From a virus (taxonomy: Duplodnaviria; Caudoviricetes): a DNA stretch of 64,000 bases. Under the pieces are notes generated by a model. The model was not told the origin of the DNA, ran no database searches, and saw only the letters and a list, made by a program, of their open reading frames with translations. The translations under genes were made by a program, and so were the position numbers. This document shows, piece after piece, positions 26,016 to 63,864 of this stretch. The stretch is taken from positions 3,566-67,565 of IMG/VR virus record IMGVR_UViG_3300037047_000162. The stretch is one strand, 5' to 3'. Numbering within the stretch: position 1 is the stretch's first letter; each line of letters starts with the position of its first letter.

Positions 26016-26515
26016 CCGGCGGCTGGCGACCGCTGGGGCTGCCGGAGGGGCATTGGTTGCCGGGGTTTGACAAAAAAAGCCGCATTCCCGACGGGACGCG
26101 GCTACGAAAAAAGGGAGCGGCCGCGCCTCGTGGTGAGGCGTGCAACTCCCCATGATGTTAATCTAGCATGTACCGGGAGTGTTTTGCAAGGCAGTCCGAA
26201 AGAAGCGGGGCCTGACCGTCAGCATGTTCTGTAGGTCGATGCCGTCCTTGCTCCACCACTTCCACCGTAGTTCAGCTTTCAGTTCGACGAGTTCTTCTTC
26301 CATCGCCTTGGCATACCGTTGCAGCCACTGGTTTGGCAATATCGCGTACACGTTCCGTGCCCCGCCGACGTCCCCGGCCGTCAAAGTGCTGTTGGCTAAG
26401 GAGCAAGGCCAGTGGAAGGTAGAGCGGTTGACAGTGGAGTGAGTCTTCCGATTTGCTATACTGCCAGCCAGCGATGTCTCTCCCGCAGGTTTCCTTCAAT
26501 CCCCGGCAGCTGAGC

Positions 26516-29500
26516 ATGGACGAGCAAAAGATTCAGAAATTCATCCAACGTTGGTCGAACTCCGGCGGCGCGGAACGGGCCAATTATCAACTGTTCCTCT
26601 CCGAACTGTGCGACGTGCTGCAGGTCGCCAGGCCGGAGCCGACGGTCGAGGACGACGCCCGCAATGCGTACGTCTTTGAACGCAACGTACTGTTCGACAA
26701 TCTGGATGGCACCCACACGACGCGGCGGATCGATCTGTACAAGCGGGGGTGTTTTGTCCTGGAGTCGAAACAAGGCGTCTTGCAGCACGACGCCGCGCCG
26801 GTCCTGTCGGCTCGGCAGCAGGAACTGCGGGCCAAACGCAAACGGGGGCACGGCACGCGCGGCACGGCGGCTTGGGATGACGCCATGTTCCGCGCCCGTG
26901 GCCAGGCCGAGCAGTACGCCCGCGCCTTATCGCCCGCCGAAGGCCGCCCGCCGTTCGTCGTGGTGGTCGATGTCGGCCACTCGATCGAGTTGTTCGCCGA
27001 GTTCTCGCAAACCGGCGGGACCTACGTGCCGTTTCCCGACCCAAAATCGCACCGCATCCGCCTGGACGAATTGGCGGACGCCGAAGTCCGCGAGCGGCTG
27101 CGTCAGGTCTGGACGGAGCCGCTGAGTTTGGACCCCGCCCGCCGTTCGGCCCGCGTCACCCGCGAGATCGCCGCCAAGCTCGCCGAGTTGGCCAAGTCGC
27201 TCGAAGCGGCCGGCCACCACGCCGACGACGTCGCCCAGTTCCTGATGCGCTGCCTGTTCACCATGTTCGCCGAAGACGTCGAACTGCTGCCGCGGGACTC
27301 GTTCCGCCGCCTGCTGTGCAGCATCGACGACCTGTCGCATTTCGTGCCGCTGGCCGAGGAGTTGTGGCGGACCATGAACCGCGGCGGGTTCTCCAGCCTG
27401 CTGCGGACCAGCTTGCTGCACTTCAACGGCGGCCTGTTCGCCGACCCGTCCGCCCTGGCGTTGACGCGGGACCAGTTGGACCTGTTGATTGAAGCGGCCG
27501 GCGCCGACTGGAAGGACGTCGAGCCGGCGATCTTCGGCACCCTTCTGGAACGCGCCCTCGACTCGGTCGAACGGCACAAGCTGGGCGCGCACTACACGCC
27601 GCGGGCCTACGTGGAACGGCTGGTGATCCCAACCGTGATCCAGCCGCTGCGGGACGAGTGGGACGCCGTCCGCACGGCGGCGGTGACGCACGCCCGGGAC
27701 GGCGACCGCAAGGCAGCGGTGGCCGAGCTGGAGGCGTTTCACGACCGGCTGTGTGATGTGCGGGTGTTAGACCCAGCCTGCGGCTCGGGCAATTTTCTGT
27801 ACGTCACGCTCGAACATCTCAAGCGGCTGGAGGGCGAACTGTTTGCGACCTGGGAGAGCATCGCCGAGCGGCAGGCGCGGCTCGAAGGCGGCCATACCGT
27901 CGATCCGCACCAACTGTTGGGCATCGAGATCAACCCGCGGGCCGCCGCGATCGCCGAACTGGTGTTGTGGATCGGCTATCTGCAATGGCACTTCCGCACC
28001 CACGGCCGCGTGAATCCGCCGGAGCCGGTGATCAAGAACTTCAAGAACATCGAGTGCCGCGACGCCGTGCTCAGCTGGTCCAGCAAGCAGCCCGAACTCG
28101 ACGAGCATGGGAAGCCCGTCACCCATTGGGACGGCCGCACCACCAAACCGCACCCAGTGACCGGCGAAGAAGTGCCTGACGAAAACGCCCGCGTGCTGTC
28201 GTTCCGGTACCTGAACCCGAAGAAGGCGGAATGGCCGGAGGCGGAGTTCATTGTGGGGAATCCGCCGTTTGTGGGCGTCGCGAGAATGCGGGAAGCGTTC
28301 GGCGATGGGTACGTAACGACGTTGCGGCAGACGTATTCAGAGCTTCCCGAGTCATGCGACTATGTCATGTACTGGTGGCACAAGGCGGCGGAATTGACTC
28401 GCACTGGTGCCGTGCGGCAGTTCGGCTTCATCGCCACAAACAGTCTGAGGCAAACGTTCAATCGACGGGTCATTCAGCCTCACCTGGAGTCTAACCCTCC
28501 GTTGTCAATCGTCTTTGCGATTCCTGACCACCCCTGGGTCGATTCGGCGTTGGGCGCGGCGGTGCGCATCTCAATGACCGTGGGATGCTGTGGCGAAAAC
28601 GACGGCAAGTTGTCCGTCGTGACAGAGGAAGTTGATCGAGGTGAGATTGGAGCTGAAACCACCGTGGTGACACGAACTGGCAAAGTTCACGCCAATCTTA
28701 CCTTGGGGGTCAACGTGGATCTCGCCGAGAGTCTGCGGGCCAATTCCGACCTCAGCAATCGTGGCGTATCCCTTTTCGGAGCCGGCTTCATCGTGACACC
28801 GGACGAAGCCAAGCGGTTGGGCCTTGGTACGACGCCGGGACTGGAACGTCACATCCGCCACTATCGCAACGGACGAGACCTGACGCAGACATCTCGCCAC
28901 GTGATGGTAATTGACCTTTTCCAATTGAAGGCCGACGAGGTTCGCCAGCGATTCCCTGAAGTGTATCAATGGCTGTACGAGCGAGTGAAACCCGAACGCG
29001 ACCACAATAACCGCGCATCGAGGCGCGACAACTGGTGGCTGTTTGGCGAAACGAATCCCAAATTACGACAACAGCTTGCAGGGCTGAAACGCTACATCGC
29101 CTCGGTTGAAACTGCAAAGCATCGTTTATTTCAGTTTCTCGACGAATCAATTCTTCCGGATAACAAGCTCGTCAACATTGCCTTGGATGATGCCTACTAC
29201 CTTGGCCTATTGTCGTCGCACACTCATGTTTGCTGGGCGTTGGCTAGTGGAAGCTGGCTGGGGGTTGGCAACGACCCGGTCTACGTCAAGTCGCTCTGCT
29301 TCGAGGCGTTTCCTTTCCCCGACCCCACCGACACCCAGAAATCCCGCATCCGCGCTCTGGGCGAGCAATTGGACGCTCACCGCAAGCGGCAGCAGGAGTC
29401 GCATCCCAAGCTGACGATGACCGGGATGTACAACGTGTTGGAAAAGCTGCGGGCGGACCAACGGCTGGACGCGAAGGAGCAGGCGATCCACGAGCAGGGG

Positions 29501-29962
29501 CTGGTCTCGGTGCTGCGGCAGATCCACGGCGAGTTAGATGCGGCGGTGGCAGACGCTTACGGCTGGCCGGTTGACTTGACCGACGAGCAGATCCTGGAAC
29601 GGCTAGTGGCCTTGAATCAACAGCGGGCCGAAGAAGAGCGTCGCGGCCTGATTCGCTGGTTGCGCCCCGAGTTCCAGAACCCGGAAGGCCGGACTCAACA
29701 AGCCATCGCCGCCGGGGAAACCGAGACGCCCACGACCGCAAAGAAGGCCGAGACAGCCAAGCGGCCCTGGCCCAAGTCGCTGTCCGCCCAAGCCGCCGCG
29801 GTCCAGACCACGCTGGCCGAACTAGCCGCGCCAGCCGACGAGGTCCAAATCGCCAAACGCTTTACCGCCGCCAACAAGGACCGCATCGCCGAACTGCTGG
29901 AAACCCTCTCGTCGCTAGGCAAAGCCCGCCAACTGGACGACGGCCGCTATGTGCCCATGTGA
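26516..29962 (+). CDS. MmeI-like Type IIL/IIG restriction-modification fusion
   Basis: N-terminal [15 protein letters not shown] (PD-(D/E)xK), [24 protein letters not shown]-like C-terminus. Confidence 0.9.
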
Positions 29963-38024: not shown

Positions 38025-38649
38025 GTGCGTGCCTTTCGTGTGAGGACTTGGGTTTCGTCGCAACTCATCAGGGCAGGCTGCGAATGCCTGCCGACCCAAG
38101 GGGGAGCGTTTACCACCGCTCCCCGATCTGGTCTTGCCTTGCTAACCAGCCGGGCCTTGTTCCGGTCTGCCACCCACAAGTGAGGAGGTCTGGTTTGGGC
38201 GTCCTTGCCGCGTAACTTGGTTGTCAAAGATCGCTTGGAGTTAGCTGACTTTGGTTCCGGCTTCTGTGTGTGCGTAGTGCCAAAGCCAACTTCCACTGTC
38301 CCTAATTTCGACTGTCCTTCGGGGGGTGACAACCCGACCTGAACGTGTTGGAACAAGATTTTTCAAAATTCCCCGACCGGGGGTGGCGCGTTGCCGTTAT
38401 TTCCCTGGACAGAATGCGTTGTGGACCGATTGGTCATTTGGAAAAATTTTTGCGAGAAGGCGGAGAAATGCCGTGTTTTGCGGGCTGCTGGCGGTCCGCG
38501 CAGGACGATTTCTGCGCTGGCGGGCGGGGACTGGACGGGGCCGCACGGGGGCCAAAGCTGGCGCGGAGCGACTGAGAAGCACGGCTGGAGCCGGGGCCGG
38601 CTGGGCGGGGAGTTGCGTTCGCCCAGCCGGACACCCGGCGATGTTTCCA

Positions 38650-45798: not shown

Positions 45799-46014
45799 TC
45801 AGGCGCGAGAAGTGTCAATCGCATCAGCCGATTTTTTCTCACGATGTGATTTGCATTCGTTAGTGAGTTTACGCAACTCACTGCGAACGATCGTCATATC
45901 ATCGGGCGCCGAGATCTCAAGTCTCGCTCGCCCACCCACAACTCTCACCTTGATGTGGATATGATCTCCGATATCGACGCCCTCTCCGTTGCTGCGAGTG
46001 AGTACCAGTGCCAT
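45799..46014 (-). CDS. csrA: Carbon storage regulator-like RNA-binding protein
   Basis: LVLTRSNGEGVDIGDHIHIKV...RLEISAPDDMTIVRSEL. Confidence 0.85.
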   Translation of the reverse strand: MALVLTRSNGEGVDIGDHIHIKVRVVGGRARLEISAPDDMTIVRSELRKLTNECKSHREKKSADAIDTSRA

Positions 46015-57191: not shown

Positions 57192-57956
57192 TCACGCGGC
57201 CTCCATGCGATCCGCCAGCCGGACGCACAGCCAGACATCCTGGTGCAGATACGCCTCAGCCGCTTTGCGGTTGTCGCGCCAGAGCCTGGCGAACTCGGCG
57301 CCGCTGACCCCCGTGCCTTCCGCCTCCGTGACCTTGCCGGCAATCCCGAACGCCCTGGCCAGCCGGTTTAGTCCGATCATGTCTCGCCCGTGGAATCCCC
57401 AGACCTGCATCAGATCGACAACCAGGTCGGACCAGTAACGGCCCTTACGCAAGCCCGCCGGAACCGGCACGCCCAACAGCCACGAGCGGCGAACCAGAAA
57501 GGGCAGATCGAAGTGGCACACGTTGAAGCCGATCAGCGGCAGCCGGTCATGCAACGCGTCTTCGACGTTATCCCACCACTCCCTCAGTCCGGCCTGTTCG
57601 TCCTGGTCGCAGTCGATGATGTCCGGCGATTCCATCTGGTCATCGCGCAGGAACCCGATGGCCACCACGCGGCCGGTTGTCGCGTCCAGGGCGGCGCGGC
57701 TCTTGAAGTCCGCGAAGTGTTTTTCTTGGGCCGCGATTACATCCGCCGCGTAACGCTGGACGAGATCGTCGTGAGCCTTGCGAGCTTCCTCGATCTTCGC
57801 CTTGCCCTTTTCGCTCGTCGGTCCGCCGATGTTGCCGCACTTCACGGCCGTCGGGTCGAACGGACCGGGGGGCGGCGGCGGCTCGAACGACGGCAACCGC
57901 TCGCGCAGAACCTCGTCGTCCAGCCCGCCCGTCTCGATATCAAACGCAAGATACAT
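57192..57956 (-). CDS. DnaQ/PolB-like 3'-5' exonuclease
   Basis: AFDIET, GFNVCHFDLPFL, YLHQDV. Confidence 0.88.
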   Translation of the reverse strand: MYLAFDIETGGLDDEVLRERLPSFEPPPPPGPFDPTAVKCGNIGGPTSEKGKAKIEEARKAHDDLVQRYAADVIAAQEKHFADFKSRAALDATTGRVVAIGFLRDDQMESPDIIDCDQDEQAGLREWWDNVEDALHDRLPLIGFNVCHFDLPFLVRRSWLLGVPVPAGLRKGRYWSDLVVDLMQVWGFHGRDMIGLNRLARAFGIAGKVTEAEGTGVSGAEFARLWRDNRKAAEAYLHQDVWLCVRLADRMEAA

Positions 57957-57988: not shown

Positions 57989-58249
57989 TTACAGAATTGC
58001 GAACGGGTCATCGCGACGGATGGCCCGCACTTGTTGAACGCCGAGGATCAGCCCCTCTCGGATCGCCTGACGTTCCATTTCCACCCGGTCGGCTTTCATC
58101 CGACCGACCAATTGCCGCCGGAATCGGCAGTAGCAGGACGGACATTGGCCGCGCCGCAGGTAACCCGACTTTCCGCAGACAAGACACTCTCCAGCCTTGA
58201 CGCAAGCTAGAACCTGAGCCAGCTTTTCCGGTTTCGCTCTCCCCTTCAT
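57989..58249 (-). CDS. Small C4 zinc-finger protein (Cro position)
   Basis: CLVC...RRGQCPSCY; AAAGG RBS; first gene of the leftward lytic operon. Confidence 0.7.
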   Translation of the reverse strand: MKGRAKPEKLAQVLACVKAGECLVCGKSGYLRRGQCPSCYCRFRRQLVGRMKADRVEMERQAIREGLILGVQQVRAIRRDDPFAIL

Positions 58250-58487
58250 CACACGCCTTTCCACCACTGAAAATATGGAAGTACCCTCCCGATTGGCGAG
58301 CGGCTCTGGGGTCTGCCGATGATGCGTTGCGACCGCCTGATCGTGCCGTGCTCGCCGCTGCGGGCCAGAAACTTCACGGATTGTAACGGCGATTAAATTG
58401 CTTTCAACGTAAGTTGCGACGTATTTGCGCCATATCTGCAACATATACGGAACGCACGTACACTTAAGTTAATGAAGCAATTAAGAC

Positions 58488-58519
58488 TTGCGTCGTGAAA
58501 AAAATTTTGGTAAATTTTT
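58488..58519 (+). promoter_or_regulatory. Promoter TTGCGT-N17-TAAATT (extended -10) overlapped by palindrome AAAAATTT-TGGT-AAATTTTT
   Basis: Read directly; ATG at 58525 suggests a leaderless mRNA. Confidence 0.6.
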
Positions 58520-58524
58520 CCGAC

Positions 58525-58881
58525 ATGAGCACAAAACACCCCGAACCGTGTCTGTCCTGCCGCGAGCAGAAGGTCATTTACGCCCGTGGGCTCTGTTCCT
58601 CGTGCTACCAGAAATGGCGGCGGGTCATGAAAATGATCCCGTCCCATCGCCGCGCCGAGGCTGAGCAGAAGCTCATCTCCGGAGGCAAGTTGCTGGCGGC
58701 GGATGCTGGCCCGAAGCCCGAATCCAACCCTTTTGTGCGGGACTTGGCGGAATTCCTGACCGGAAGCGAACGCATGGTGGAAGCGGAGGCCCAAGGCCAC
58801 CAGGGTCAGCAGTCCGAACCGGCCGCAGGCAAGAAGAAACGCGGCAGATCCAGGCAAACGGAACTTGGGCCGAAGCGCTGA
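58525..58881 (+). CDS. Small C4 zinc-finger protein (CI position), paralog of 57989-58249
   Basis: CLSC...ARGLCSSCY; divergent from its paralog. Confidence 0.7.
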   Translation: MSTKHPEPCLSCREQKVIYARGLCSSCYQKWRRVMKMIPSHRRAEAEQKLISGGKLLAADAGPKPESNPFVRDLAEFLTGSERMVEAEAQGHQGQQSEPAAGKKKRGRSRQTELGPKR

Positions 58882-59015
58882 GGCGAGCAGACATGCTCTC
58901 GGCCGACGGCAAGAAGTGCCGGGCCGAAATACGAATGTGACCAAAGGTGTCACGCAATTCCGCTAGCAGTGGAGGCATACTAAACATGTTTTCACTTCTA
59001 TAGAGGAAATCACCG

Positions 59016-59426
59016 ATGCGTCAGATTCGTTACCAGCTGTGGAGCGTGGACCCGATTGACCCCAATGATGAACGGCCGCTGTTTGGGAGCTATACCTTGG
59101 AGGCGTGTCGGCGAATCATCGCCGTCTACAACACTCGGGACCGCTGCCACCGGCTGCTGATCGCCAAGCCCGTGGAATGTCAGATCCCGGCCTGCCACTG
59201 TTACACCTGCCAGATCCACACCACCAAGTCCGACAAGGTGTTCGTCCGGAAGATCCAGGCGGCGGACGCTTATGCCGCCGCCCGAGACTGCATACGGCGT
59301 TTCCAGGCCGGCATCGACGAAGTCGCCGTCTGGCTGTACGACGAGGATCGCGAGGCCGGAGCGCTGCCCGTTCTGCTGCTTCATCGTGACGGGAAGCTGT
59401 GGAGAGCCAGGCGGATCGCGTCCTGA
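59016..59426 (+). CDS. Hypothetical protein
   Basis: AGAGGA RBS; clean ORF. Confidence 0.55.
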   Translation: MRQIRYQLWSVDPIDPNDERPLFGSYTLEACRRIIAVYNTRDRCHRLLIAKPVECQIPACHCYTCQIHTTKSDKVFVRKIQAADAYAAARDCIRRFQAGIDEVAVWLYDEDREAGALPVLLLHRDGKLWRARRIAS

Positions 59427-59484: not shown

Positions 59485-59781
59485 TCAGATCCCGGCGGCC
59501 GCCAGTTCGGCCTCGGCCCGGGCGATGTCCCGCGCCCGCTGCCTGGCCGAGCGGACGGGGATCTCCCGGCCGTCGGCCGCCGCGGTGCTTCGCTCGATGA
59601 AACGCTCAATCGCCTCGTGGGAAGTGAAGCGCCTGCCGCCGACCTTGATGGTCTCCAGCCGCAGGCCGCGGACGCCGTTGTTGACCCACCGCCAGACCGT
59701 GGCCACGTGCGGCCGTCCGGGGAAGATTTTGGTCGCTTCGGTGATCGTACAGAGGGTTTCGTTTTGGAATTCGATCGACAT
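59485..59781 (-). CDS. DUF1580-like HTH excisionase / directionality factor
   Basis: PGRPHVATVWRWV..GVRG..LET.KVGGRRFTS.EAIERF. Confidence 0.85.
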   Translation of the reverse strand: MSIEFQNETLCTITEATKIFPGRPHVATVWRWVNNGVRGLRLETIKVGGRRFTSHEAIERFIERSTAAADGREIPVRSARQRARDIARAEAELAAAGI

Positions 59782-60186
59782 GGATGCACTCCGACAAAAA
59801 AAGGGCCAACGAGGAACGACGACCTCGCTGGCCCATCTTCTGTTTCGAAGTGCGCAGGCAAGGTCATCACTGCCCTTGCCGGAATTCGTTTGTCGCTTGG
59901 ACATCACACGACACCGATTGTTAACGATGTCGGTCCCTTCCCTGAGTTGTCCACGAGGGGCTATCGCTTACTTGCTTCACCCCCAGACAAACGCCGCACC
60001 GGTCCGGTGACCGCGCGTCCTCAGCCCACCCCACCGCCGAGACGGCCTTCGCTCGAAAGCTACTGCATCCCGGTTCGGAGCCGGGAACGGATCAAGCTGG
60101 TTCACCGCACGCGAGCGGGTGACTCACGTGGGGATACGTACACTGTAGCAAAGCATCGCCCTGGCGTGCAAGGGTCGGCAAAAAAA

Positions 60187-61287
60187 TCATCCCACCTGCC
60201 GCGCGACCTCGACCGCCAGCCGCTGGTCCCGTTCCGCGTACACCTGCGTCACATCGGCCTTGCTGTGGCCGAGGACCACCTGGGCCGCCTCCAGCCCGAA
60301 CTTCTGGCGGACCGTCGTAGCGGCGTTGTGCCGCAACTGATTTGGATGCCAGGGCTCAAGCAACGGCTGGCCTTGCTTCCGACGTAGTCGGTTCGCTCGG
60401 TTAACGGCAGACTTAATCCGATCGTGGTACGCTCGCGAATTGAATCCTCGGGGGCTCCGCGGTGCCCGAAAACAGGGTAAGTCGTCACCGAAAAGATACG
60501 GTTTCAAGATTTCCTGCGCCTGCGGACCGATGTAGACAATCCGCTGGCGGCCGTGATGTTCGGTCTTATGTTCCTCGGGAACGAATCGCCAAACGTCCCC
60601 GGTGCGGTCGATGTCCTTCGGCCGCATACTGCAGACTTCGCCAGGTCTGGCCCCCGTGAGCCGCTGGAATTGCACCATTGCGGCGACCACGGGCTTCAGG
60701 TGTGGCAAGGTCGCATCGACCACGGCATCATCGACCGGCAGCACCGGAGCGGTTTCTCGGGCGGTGGTTTTCCCCTTAGCCAGACCGGGAACGACAATTA
60801 GGCGGTGGTAGACTTCGGCGGGGACCAATTCCTCCGCAGCGGCCCATTTGAAAATGTGCTTGATCCGGCCCGCTTGCTTGTTGACGTAGTTGCGGGAGTT
60901 ACCCGCCAAAACCATCTGGTCCCGGACTGCCTTCAAACCCTTCGGCCCGAAATCTGCGGCTCGGGTTCTGCCGTACAGGTCTTTGAGGTATCGCAGCACA
61001 ACCTTATAGCTGGCCACTTCGTCGGTGACTCGACCGCGCTTGACGTAGTGCTTGGTGGCGTGACGGAGAAACGCTCCACACACCTCGGTGATCGTGATAT
61101 CGACCGCGGGCGTGATGCGTGTCGGCCGATCATCGGCAACCCATTCGGCGATCCGCCGCTTGTATTCCTGTTTACTGGCGGCGGTGCCAAATTTCCCCAG
61201 GTAGAAGTCGCGTCCACCAATCCGTACCACAGCTTGGCCTGACGCGTGTTTGCGATACTTCGGAACGGAGTTTACGAGTCTCGGCAT
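60187..61287 (-). CDS. Prophage tyrosine integrase
   Basis: TGARPGE, HKT, NQLRHNAAT, LGHS, VY; adjacent to the tRNA fragment. Confidence 0.92.
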   Translation of the reverse strand: MPRLVNSVPKYRKHASGQAVVRIGGRDFYLGKFGTAASKQEYKRRIAEWVADDRPTRITPAVDITITEVCGAFLRHATKHYVKRGRVTDEVASYKVVLRYLKDLYGRTRAADFGPKGLKAVRDQMVLAGNSRNYVNKQAGRIKHIFKWAAAEELVPAEVYHRLIVVPGLAKGKTTARETAPVLPVDDAVVDATLPHLKPVVAAMVQFQRLTGARPGEVCSMRPKDIDRTGDVWRFVPEEHKTEHHGRQRIVYIGPQAQEILKPYLFGDDLPCFRAPRSPRGFNSRAYHDRIKSAVNRANRLRRKQGQPLLEPWHPNQLRHNAATTVRQKFGLEAAQVVLGHSKADVTQVYAERDQRLAVEVARQVG

Positions 61288-61426
61288 AGTGCAGCCCTTT
61301 CGGCAACCGGACCGCAAAATGGTAGGCTACCACTTTGCGCCCCGTTGGTTTTTCCGAAAAAACGCCGCACTTCCGAACGTCGGAAGGTATCGTAAGTCTC
61401 TACTCGGCTTGAAGTTACGTTGTCAG

Positions 61427-61652: not shown

Positions 61653-62915
61653 ATGGCGTCCATTCAAAAGAAGGGGGATGGCTGGTACTGCCAGTTCTTG
61701 TACCGCGGCAAACGGCACACGTTCACCATCGGGAAAGTTGATGACGAGGAAGCGGAAACCAAGGCGAATCAAATTGATTACCTGCTGATGCGGATCCGCC
61801 AAGGGCTGCTCACCGTGCCGCCCGGCATCGATATCGTGTTGTTTCTACAGCACGACGGCAATCCGCCGGAACCCGTTGCACAAGCAGAGCAAAGCGAGCC
61901 GCAGATCCTGACCCTGGGCGGCCTTCGCGACCGCTACCTGGAAACACACGGGAACGGGAGCCTGGAGCCGACGACATTGAGCTTGATCAAAACACATTTT
62001 CGGCACCTGGTGGCCACCCTCGGCGAACGGTTTCCTATCGGCGAACTGGGGATGGCGGATTTGCAGAAACACATCAACAGGCGGGCCAAAATGAAGGGTC
62101 TGAAACAGGGCAAGCTCTCGCCGACGACCATGAAAAAAGAAATCGTCACCTTGCGGACGGCGTGGAACTGGGGCGTCAACATGCGGTTCCTATCCGGCAA
62201 GTTTCCGGCGACGGGTCTCACGTACCCGAAGTTCGAGGACAAGCCGCCATTTCAGACCCGTGAAGAAATCGAGCGGCGTATCGCCGCCGGCGGCCTGAAG
62301 AAGAAGGAAATTGCCGAGCTATGGGACTGCCTGTACCTGACACTGCCCGACGTCGAGGATATCCTGAAGCAGGTTGACGAAAAAGCGATCCAACCCTGGG
62401 TCCATCCCATGTGCTGCATGGTGGCCTACACCGGGGCACGACGCTCTGAAATGCTCCGGGCATTCGTGACCGACATCGACCTGCAGAACCAGACGGTCCT
62501 GCTCCGCGAACGGAAGCGGGCCAAGGGGCGAGCGACGACTCGCCGCGTGCCGTTGGCCCCGCAACTTGTGGACGTCCTCAAAGCCTGGCTTGCGATCCAC
62601 CCCGGAGGTCAGCACTTGTTCGCTCAAGCGACGGTTGTCGCGCGCAGTAAAAGCACGCGAAAGGCTGCCACGCCGATCACGCCGGACGAGGCCCACGATC
62701 ATCTCAAGCGGGCGCTGGCCGATACCAAGTGGAACGTCATGCGGGGCTATCACGTCTTCCGCCACTCCTTCATCAGCCTGGCCGCCAGCCGCGGTATCGA
62801 CCAGCGGTTGATCGACGAGTGGGTTGGCCATCAGACCGACGAGCAGCGTCGCCGGTATCGCCACCTGTACCCGACGACGCAGCAAGAGGCGATCAGCCGG
62901 ATGTTCACCAAGTAG
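61653..62915 (+). CDS. Tyrosine integrase of a second integrative element
   Basis: YTGARRSE, YHVFRHSF, VGHQT, RY. Confidence 0.92.
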   Translation: MASIQKKGDGWYCQFLYRGKRHTFTIGKVDDEEAETKANQIDYLLMRIRQGLLTVPPGIDIVLFLQHDGNPPEPVAQAEQSEPQILTLGGLRDRYLETHGNGSLEPTTLSLIKTHFRHLVATLGERFPIGELGMADLQKHINRRAKMKGLKQGKLSPTTMKKEIVTLRTAWNWGVNMRFLSGKFPATGLTYPKFEDKPPFQTREEIERRIAAGGLKKKEIAELWDCLYLTLPDVEDILKQVDEKAIQPWVHPMCCMVAYTGARRSEMLRAFVTDIDLQNQTVLLRERKRAKGRATTRRVPLAPQLVDVLKAWLAIHPGGQHLFAQATVVARSKSTRKAATPITPDEAHDHLKRALADTKWNVMRGYHVFRHSFISLAASRGIDQRLIDEWVGHQTDEQRRRYRHLYPTTQQEAISRMFTK

Positions 62916-62967
62916 CTGCGGCTCATCGGAAGCGATGTTGATATGTCGTGGGACCGCTCAACGGGTA

Positions 62968-63255
62968 TCAGTATTCGCTTGGCAACAATGCGGTGATTGC
63001 GGACTCGCCGCCGTCTTCGATGATCCACAACGGCGTACGGCCGTCGTCTGCATCGAACGCCTGCCCGTGCTCCAGTCCGTTTGCGGCGCGGGCCGTGTCC
63101 TGCAGCGTGGCCAGACACCAAGCGATTTCCTCGCGGGTGTACGTGGCGATCGCCCCAGCCGTCACGCGGAACGGTTTCCCGTCGTCCGGCACAAACAACC
63201 AGCGTGAAGACGGATCGTCAAGCGGCGTTTCCTGGGGTCGAAGCTTGAGGGCCAT
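62968..63255 (-). CDS. Hypothetical protein
   Basis: LWIIEDG...ITALLPSEY C-terminal motif typical of small mobile-element proteins. Confidence 0.55.
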   Translation of the reverse strand: MALKLRPQETPLDDPSSRWLFVPDDGKPFRVTAGAIATYTREEIAWCLATLQDTARAANGLEHGQAFDADDGRTPLWIIEDGGESAITALLPSEY

Positions 63256-63346
63256 AGGGGTTTACGAAGCGCGATCGTGGCGGATTATATTCCGAGCCAG
63301 GTGGCCAACGCAAAGACAGACCGACGGACATCCACGGCCGCCAGCA

Positions 63347-63610
63347 TCATCGTTCCGGCAGCAACCCCTCGCGCTCGATCCGATTAAGCTCCTGGTGCGA
63401 AATCACCCACGACTGGTACTTGCCCCGGCCGCTGCGCCGTTTCTCGGCCTTGATCCGGCCGCGACGCGCCCACTCGCGCACGGTGAACTCCGCCTTCCCC
63501 AGCAGTTCGGCGACCTCGTCGGTCGAGTAGTAATCCTTCACCGTCCGGAGCTGGATCAGTGTGCCAATTGCCTTCTCGATGCGTTCCAGACGTTCCAAGA
63601 TTGCGTCCAC
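63347..63610 (-). CDS. HTH_17/MerR-like excisionase of the second element
   Basis: YYSTDEVAELLGKAEFTVREWARRGRI; AAGGGG RBS before GTG. Confidence 0.85.
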   Translation of the reverse strand: MDAILERLERIEKAIGTLIQLRTVKDYYSTDEVAELLGKAEFTVREWARRGRIKAEKRRSGRGKYQSWVISHQELNRIEREGLLPER

Positions 63611-63699
63611 GATTATCCCCTTGAGTTGCACCACGATTCTGTTTTCAGAAGAAACGACGGTGGCCCCCTGGGGCCACCGTCGCTCGGCCCACCGGCCGT

Positions 63700-63864
63700 C
63701 TACTCGGCCTCGGTCTCCTGCGGCTGCTCCCGCAGCTTGTCCCAGACGTGCTTCAGGCACAGCACGCCGCGGAACGACTTATCGCCGAACTGGACGACGA
63801 CCGTCCGCTCCGTCGTGCCGCAGATGAAACACCGCTTGTCGCTCACCTCGCGAATCGTCAACAT
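63700..63864 (-). CDS. Small Cys-containing protein
   Basis: MLTIREVSDKRCFICG...VLCLKH; AGGAGG RBS. Below the ORF-track cutoff. Confidence 0.55.
   Translation of the reverse strand: MLTIREVSDKRCFICGTTERTVVVQFGDKSFRGVLCLKHVWDKLREQPQETEAE

Follow-up and report, generated by a model that had tools for sequence, protein, structure and literature searches.

To our knowledge, nearly all characterised phage repressors are helix-turn-helix (HTH), ribbon-helix-helix or integrase-like proteins. In phage P2, the switch proteins C and Cox are both of the HTH type and are expressed from promoters that lie face to face, with Cox acting both as an excisionase and as the lytic-side repressor. The Ogr and Delta proteins of phages P2 and P4 are late-promoter activators that contact the alpha subunit of RNA polymerase, and they are not located at the immunity switch. 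We know of nothing reported about how lysogeny is controlled in phages that infect Planctomycetota or related uncultured hosts. Here we describe two small proteins, ORF A and ORF B, that may together form a lysis/lysogeny (immunity) switch with lambda-like logic and a zinc-finger fold. We infer this function from the position of the pair only, and we put its probability at about one half. An immunity switch is a known kind of system; the protein family behind this one is undescribed. We found no description of such a switch in the literature that we searched, which does not prove that none exists.

The locus lies in a 67.5-kb IMG/VR virus record that is rated complete by CheckV. We analyzed bases 3566-67565 of this record, a stretch of 64,000 nucleotides with a GC content of ~64% that we refer to as the window and whose numbering is used throughout (Table 1). 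The window encodes a lambda-type portal, an S49 protease, a gpA-type large terminase (TerL) and a tape-measure protein, together with a replication block that comprises a RecD2-like helicase, a Toprim protein, an ERCC4 nuclease and an exonuclease. Judged by its gene content, with structural genes, replication genes and an integrase in the same record, the phage is temperate. Its host is probably a member of Planctomycetota, on the basis of a DUF1580 protein, a family whose distribution we take to be planctomycete, and of an ORF A homolog from a planctomycete metagenome-assembled genome (Candidatus Anammoximicrobium, Pirellulaceae). Nearly all phage genes are on the minus strand, from ~2.8 kb to 58.25 kb of the window. 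Within the late region, the opposite strand encodes an MmeI-like type IIL restriction-modification fusion with all four MmeI domains (26453-29962, plus strand), which is a defence moron. The phage also encodes, in the middle of the prophage, a 71-aa CsrA homolog (45799-46014, minus strand; Pfam CsrA E 4.3e-13) that could reprogram host post-transcriptional control.

Table 1. Features of the divergent locus and its surroundings, in window coordinates.
Feature	Position	Strand	Description
3'-5' exonuclease	57192-57956	-	first early gene after ORF A
ORF A	57989-58249	-	86 aa; A-type zinc-finger protein; heads leftward early/replication operon; proposed Cro-like regulator
ORF A 5' leader	58250-58373	-	~120 nt, 62% GC; conserved in L005
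P_A (predicted)	58380-58407	-	-35 TTGAAA (58407-58402), 16-nt spacer, -10 TACAAT (58385-58380)
Inverted pair AATTGCTT / AAGCAATT	58396-58403 and 58475-58482		candidate operator
Direct 9-mer repeat ACGTAAGTT / ACTTAAGTT	58407 and 58462		55 bp apart; candidate operator
AT-rich inter-promoter core	58408-58487		candidate operator repeats
TTGCGNC candidate repeats	58414, 58425, 58488		first two 11 bp apart
P_B (predicted)	58488-58516	+	-35 TTGCGT (58488-58493), 17-nt spacer, extended -10 TGgTAAATT (58508-58516)
Palindrome AAAAATTT-N4-AAATTTTT	58500-58507 / 58512-58519		overlaps P_B -10
ORF B	58525-58881	+	118 aa; B-type zinc-finger protein; ATG 58525; proposed CI-like maintenance repressor
ORF3	59016-59426	+	136 aa; Cys-rich; after ORF B
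DUF1580/HTH_17-like gene	59485-59907	-	DUF1580 E 2.9e-18; HTH_17 E 1.5e-3, below Pfam cut-off; phrog_66
Tyrosine integrase of prophage	60187-61317	-	type and orientation differ from integrases after B in relatives

The original prediction, made from the DNA alone, had placed two small, head-to-head, paralogous ORFs at this locus, and our comparisons bear this out. ORF A and ORF B are 33% identical over 51 residues (BLASTP, E 5e-5), and their family profiles align with a probability of 96.6% (hhalign, E 6.8e-10, 66 columns). The profile alignment spans the four metal ligands together with the subsequent basic helix and a C-terminal [DN]PF motif, and on this evidence we consider the two proteins to be real paralogs. 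The predicted metal ligands are Cys 23, 26, 37 and 40 in ORF A (numbering of P0001) and Cys 9, 12, 24 and 27 in ORF B; beyond its finger, ORF B has an acidic linker and then a disordered basic C-terminal tail. Translation of ORF A most likely starts at the ATG at 58249, because its homologs are 87 aa long and have the same first residues. Many A-type database entries (P0041, P0048 and others) carry a spurious N-terminal "QISRWIAM"; as this peptide is the translated Shine-Dalgarno sequence plus start codon of leaders such as those in L045 and L046, their starts were called too far upstream.

The AlphaFold2 model of ORF A (pLDDT 81.6) begins with a helix, which is followed by two zinc knuckles and then by three more helices, while that of ORF B has a core of residues 7-55 with pLDDT >90 and a disordered tail at residues 93-118. 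Fold searches of PDB and BFVD with both models gave no match at E <= 1e-3 or Z > 4, and the weak top rows were zinc ribbons, a nuclear-receptor DNA-binding domain and actinophage HNH endonucleases. At the sequence level, neither protein matched a Pfam, NCBIfam or PDB family, and Pfam scans specifically gave no match to an HTH domain, to an HNH catalytic domain or, at E <= 0.1, to an Ogr/Delta-type family. The sole sequence resemblance was between the ORF B finger (residues 7-36) and the N-terminal part of phrog_20467, a family of HNH endonucleases (E 1.6e-4). In the basic tail of ORF B the R-G-R-P core of an AT-hook is not preserved, the sequence reading RGRSR with the core proline lost; seven close homologs have an RGRPK AT-hook at the same position, and in more distant B-type proteins the tail is merely rich in Lys, Arg and Pro.

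A profile built from both proteins matched 728 cluster representatives (clusters defined at 50% identity) at E <= 1e-3 among 1.84 billion proteins, 102 of them at E <= 1e-10. Family members are nearly all 75-140 aa long and have one of two architectures. A-type proteins have an N-terminal helix and a finger that begins at about residue 23-37, and they terminate 1-7 residues past [DN]PF, with no tail; in B-type proteins the finger is at about residue 7-16 and [DN]PF is followed by a tail of 35-75 residues containing 8-19 Lys/Arg. A strict pattern for the finger, C-x2-C ... G-x-C-x2-[CH]-Y, was present in 100 of the 147 family matches scanned. The finger had originally been described as a C4 type, which is correct for this phage; as a His occupies the fourth ligand position in most relatives, the term is limited to the lineage of this phage and CCC[CH] describes the family. 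Neighbors in the ESM Atlas were unnamed clusters, mostly viral, and tblastn found no homolog of A or B among GenBank phages. By these searches the family appears unnamed and undescribed, with no solved structure in the databases searched.

Two further occurrences of the finger bear on what it might bind. The finger alone, often repeated, is also found in HNH endonucleases, which are larger proteins encoded at other loci and have an HNH match. In addition, the metagenomic protein P0055 (444 aa) contains an RstR-like HTH_3 repressor domain followed by at least six copies of the same zinc finger, a fusion that links the finger to phage repressors. Its presence in HNH endonucleases and in the RstR-like fusion points towards a DNA-binding role for the finger. 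Zinc fingers can bind RNA or protein too, and zinc binding and DNA binding are predicted properties of A and B. That both are DNA-binding regulators of the divergent promoters we consider likely.

We looked for relatives of the locus in IMG/VR by means of degenerate DNA patterns for the finger and scored the ORFs with A-type and B-type HMMs; peptide patterns for close relatives found none in viral or genome contigs and one in metagenome contigs (L005). A divergent A/B pair was present in eight further loci, namely seven viral records (L033, L029/L045, L022/L046, L023, L049, L057 and L064) and L005, so that the survey for such a pair that had been proposed at the outset did find it at the boundary between integrase and early operon. 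Overall, an A-type gene was present in 11 loci. In 9 of these a divergent B-type gene lies at a distance of 100-300 bp, and two (L072 and L077) have an A-type gene and no B. When four viral records were searched over their whole length, each contained exactly two family members, the pair itself; one of these four is a complete 59.8-kb phage genome with direct terminal repeats (G001). The relatives that carry the pair range from 49% to 61% GC, compared with 64% for the window, and are otherwise diverged.

A heads the early operon in every locus and is followed by replication or recombination genes, and in all seven loci with enough flanking sequence a tyrosine integrase gene lies downstream of B in the same orientation, with 0-3 genes between. 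A small HTH_17-type gene often comes directly after A, as in L049 (Pfam E 2.3e-9) and, by eye alone, in L023, L045, L046, L064 and L072. The B operon of L045 also holds an HsdR_N-like nuclease (Pfam), with a homolog in L046 recognized by eye. We found no co-divergence of A with B in a Mantel test (r -0.04), and A-B identity was 0.31 both within and between phages. It is almost certain that the pair is conserved at the switch position. As a separate observation, the B operon of several relatives (L046 3935-4432, L057 1166-1627 and L064 1906-2343) encodes, immediately before the integrase, a conserved family of ~145-165 aa proteins without a Pfam match, which could be a recombination directionality factor.

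Within the window, the 275-bp gap between A and B had been described as AT-rich as a whole. This holds for its right part (58380-58524, ~145 bp, 37% GC) and not for its left part (58250-58379, 62% GC); the left is the leader of ORF A and the right holds both promoters. A and B are predicted to be transcribed divergently from two back-to-back promoters (Table 1). In a promoter scan P_A matched the consensus at 10 of 12 positions, and both of its hexamers are kept in L005 although the spacer between them has diverged. Near-consensus equivalents of P_A, with leaders of 95-150 nt, are present in L033, L045 and L046. We also considered an RNA element in the ORF A leader and rejected it, as its fold was no better than that of shuffled sequences (z -0.09) and there was no Rfam match.

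For P_B, the hexamers, their spacing and the ATG 8 nt past the -10 that had been read from the sequence were all recovered. No Shine-Dalgarno sequence precedes this ATG, and the P_B transcript is predicted to begin at or beside it and thus to be leaderless. The same arrangement recurs in the relatives: in 9/9 loci the start codon of B is 5-8 nt past a -10-like hexamer and lacks a Shine-Dalgarno sequence, on which ground its mRNA is predicted to be leaderless in all nine. The spacer of P_B contains an A7T4 tract (58498-58508), and a homopolymeric A/T tract occupies this spacer in 8/9 loci, the commonest word being GAAAAA(A). GAAAAA was found in eight of nine extracted regions, compared with a maximum of six in shuffled sequences (the L064 region was wrongly extracted). 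The -35 of P_B reads TTGCxx in most loci, and the hexamers of both promoters are conserved while their surroundings diverge.

Several short repeats lie between and over the two promoters and are candidate operators (Table 1). The TTGCGNC word occurs at five sites in 296 bp compared with 0.23 expected, for a motif that was chosen post hoc. The palindrome originally reported over the -10 of P_B was confirmed, and its 8-mer has four strand-wise matches, at two places in the 64-kb window, compared with 0.65 expected. Relatives have repeats in the same place, with three 9-mers spaced at 11 + 11 bp in L045, two at 11 bp in L046, and spacings of 22 bp in L057 and 56 bp in L033; these spacings, like those in the window, are multiples of about 11 bp, for motifs picked by eye in few loci. 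The repeat sequences vary from phage to phage, and what the loci have in common is limited to the A/T tract and a TTGCG-like word; a shared motif beyond these two was not significant against shuffled sequences (nine regions, L064 being wrongly extracted). Differences of this kind are what immunity-specific operators would show, and we treat the repeats as candidates. The AAAAATTTTT palindrome recurs just once elsewhere in the 64 kb, at 38442-38451, in a ~700-bp gap upstream of an AAA_5 gene and downstream of a ParB/glycosyltransferase block, and it could be a second target of a factor that binds the A/T tract.

We also searched the record for regulators of the known kinds. Searched in all six reading frames, the 67.5-kb record gave no match to HTH_3, Peptidase_S24 (PF00717), an ImmA-type M78 protease or an ANT antirepressor, while positive controls worked in each of these searches and the HTH_3 control was found in 14/14 genomes. 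The claim that the phage encodes no autocleavage domain is upheld by the PF00717 result. The broader claim that it has no HTH or S24 repressor outside the pair stands for HTH_3 and S24 and fails for the gene at 59485-59907, whose DUF1580/HTH_17 product had been overlooked; likewise, a CI/Cro-like switch is favored by the position of the pair in eight further loci and by the lack of HTH_3, S24, ImmA and Ant matches, and is qualified by this protein. Six-frame matches to HTH_17 occurred at three places only: this gene (20.4 bits), 63347-63760 and a weak stretch at ~51.6 kb. Pfam scans of ~60 ORFs revealed no other DNA-binding regulator.

The gene at 59485-59907 adjoins the tyrosine integrase, downstream of it on the minus strand, and its product is probably an excisionase or AlpA-type factor. 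The integrase module of the window is inverted, lies outside the B operon and has its own DUF1580/HTH_17 gene, a difference from the relatives that is ordinary phage mosaicism. ORF3, once suggested as a possible HTH repressor, has no family match; it is conserved after B only in L005 (L005 897-1310) and is predicted to be co-transcribed with ORF B. Between ORF B and ORF3 is a GTGAC-N7-GTCAC hairpin (58937-58953) with a terminator-like score on the minus strand, which could stop antisense transcription from the integrase side. Immediately past the integrase of the prophage, another tyrosine integrase (61653-62915, plus strand) is followed by the HTH_17 protein at 63347-63760 (minus strand) and a 54-aa C-x2-C...C-x2-H ORF (63700-63864, minus strand; GC3 0.95); the region 61653-63864 probably represents either a tandem second integrative element or the point where the record has its true edge.

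We propose that the two proteins are regulators with zinc-dependent, sequence-specific binding to DNA and would act jointly as the immunity switch. In the prophage state, the leaderless P_B transcript would supply B, and B would bind short repeats in the ~110-bp AT-rich inter-promoter core through its finger and basic recognition helix, with its basic, AT-hook-like tail aiding binding on the A/T tract. This binding would shut off the strong P_A and with it all genes of the leftward early/replication operon. Once the prophage is induced, or upon infection, A would be the first product of P_A. As A has the DNA-binding domain of B without the tail, it would bind sites that overlap those of B and shut off P_B. 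Both the direction of repression and the identity of the operators we infer from this layout, and on the specific roles, with B as the CI-like and A as the Cro-like protein, our judgment is evenly poised. Oxidation of the zinc thiolates, proteolysis directed by the tail and an unrecognized antirepressor are speculative candidates for the trigger of induction.

Several observations count against the switch reading, namely the candidate operators that vary between loci and were picked by eye, the lack of co-divergence of A with B, the A-type genes without B in L072 and L077, the location of the window's integrase outside the B operon and the loss of the AT-hook core proline in the window's B. 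As HTH_17-type genes are nearby, a Cox-like HTH regulator could also take part in the switch or itself be the actual switch. A and B might be regulators without being the master switch, with B an integrase-operon regulator or accessory factor (CII-, Xis- or RDF-like), A a regulator of early genes, and immunity conferred by the Cox-like HTH_17/DUF1580 protein, ORF3 or an unrecognized repressor. The constant linkage of B to the integrase would fit this arrangement, as would the HTH_17-type gene right after A in L049 (Pfam) and five other loci (by eye), the DUF1580/HTH_17 gene of the window and the loci that have A alone. However, HTH_17 proteins beside integrases are usually excisionases, that of the window lies away from the divergent promoters, scans of ~60 ORFs revealed no other DNA-binding protein, and it is the pair and not the HTH_17 gene that is invariably at the divergence point. 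We regard this alternative as unlikely, albeit one to be taken seriously.

Roles that are reversed or otherwise unlike those of lambda are a less probable reading, in which A, as an early regulator of the activator or antiterminator-like type, would work through its long leader and B would be a negative autoregulator only. The leader of A is conserved at 95-150 nt in several loci and the A/T tract is within B's own promoter, both of which would fit this reading; yet the leader has no significant structure or Rfam match, and the layout still fits CI/Cro logic best. Still more improbable, in our estimation, is a non-regulatory pair, in which A and B would be nucleic-acid-binding accessory proteins akin to the fingers of homing HNH endonucleases (with a superinfection-exclusion, anti-defence or partition-like function) that lie at a module boundary because morons collect there. 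Although the best database resemblance is indeed to the N-terminal finger of HNH endonucleases and no transcription-factor family was matched, A and B have no catalytic domain, and in every locus the early operon begins with A. Morons, moreover, are not normally kept as a divergent pair of paralogs with conserved promoters in phages of 49-64% GC.

Returning to the lambda-like switch, we tentatively extend it to a class of phage immunity switches that would be widespread and so far undescribed, a generalization about which we are somewhat more doubtful than about the switch itself. This class would be characterized by a CCC[CH] finger, helically phased direct repeats, a leaderless repressor mRNA and induction without RecA-mediated autocleavage or known antirepressors. 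If this is true, a new DNA-binding fold joins the lysis/lysogeny decision, and the question is posed of what triggers induction without an S24 domain. It would also give initial access to the control of lysogeny in phages that infect Planctomycetota and related uncultured hosts, and prophage-annotation pipelines could recognize temperate phages that now look "repressor-less". Two small proteins and ~150 bp of DNA would, in addition, make a compact, orthogonal and directly testable set of parts.

Among known proteins, the closest to A and B in sequence are the N-terminal zinc-finger DNA-binding modules of phage HNH homing endonucleases (e.g. phrog_20467; C-x2-C...G-L-C-x2-H-Y), which share the finger and the basic helix after the second knuckle. 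Unlike these enzymes, A and B lack a nuclease domain and have a helical C-terminal part ending in [DN]PF that is absent from the endonucleases. They resemble Ogr and Delta in being small, phage-encoded Cys4 zinc-finger proteins, but differ in having no match to an Ogr/Delta-type Pfam family at E <= 0.1 and in being placed at a switch position. As with Cox of P2, an excisionase-family HTH gene lies beside the switch in several relatives, where a double role is conceivable; in contrast to P2, the HTH_17 gene here is second in the operon or beside the integrase.

The layout is most like that of lambda cI/cro, in which two small divergent regulators with back-to-back promoters lie where the integrase/lysogeny side meets the early replication operon. 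As for lambda cI transcribed from PRM, the mRNA of the lysogeny-side gene B is predicted to be leaderless, and the accessory gene for an HsdR_N-like nuclease in the B operon of some relatives recalls cI-rexAB. The division of domains is also shared with lambda, since the lysogeny-side B combines the common putative DNA-binding domain with an extension while the lytic-side A is minimal. Unlike the lambda proteins, however, A and B have neither a helix-turn-helix nor an S24 autocleavage domain, and consist of a CCC[CH] finger followed by helices. Finally, where lambda has three 17-bp palindromes (OR1-3), the candidate operators of this locus are short, helically phased direct repeats.
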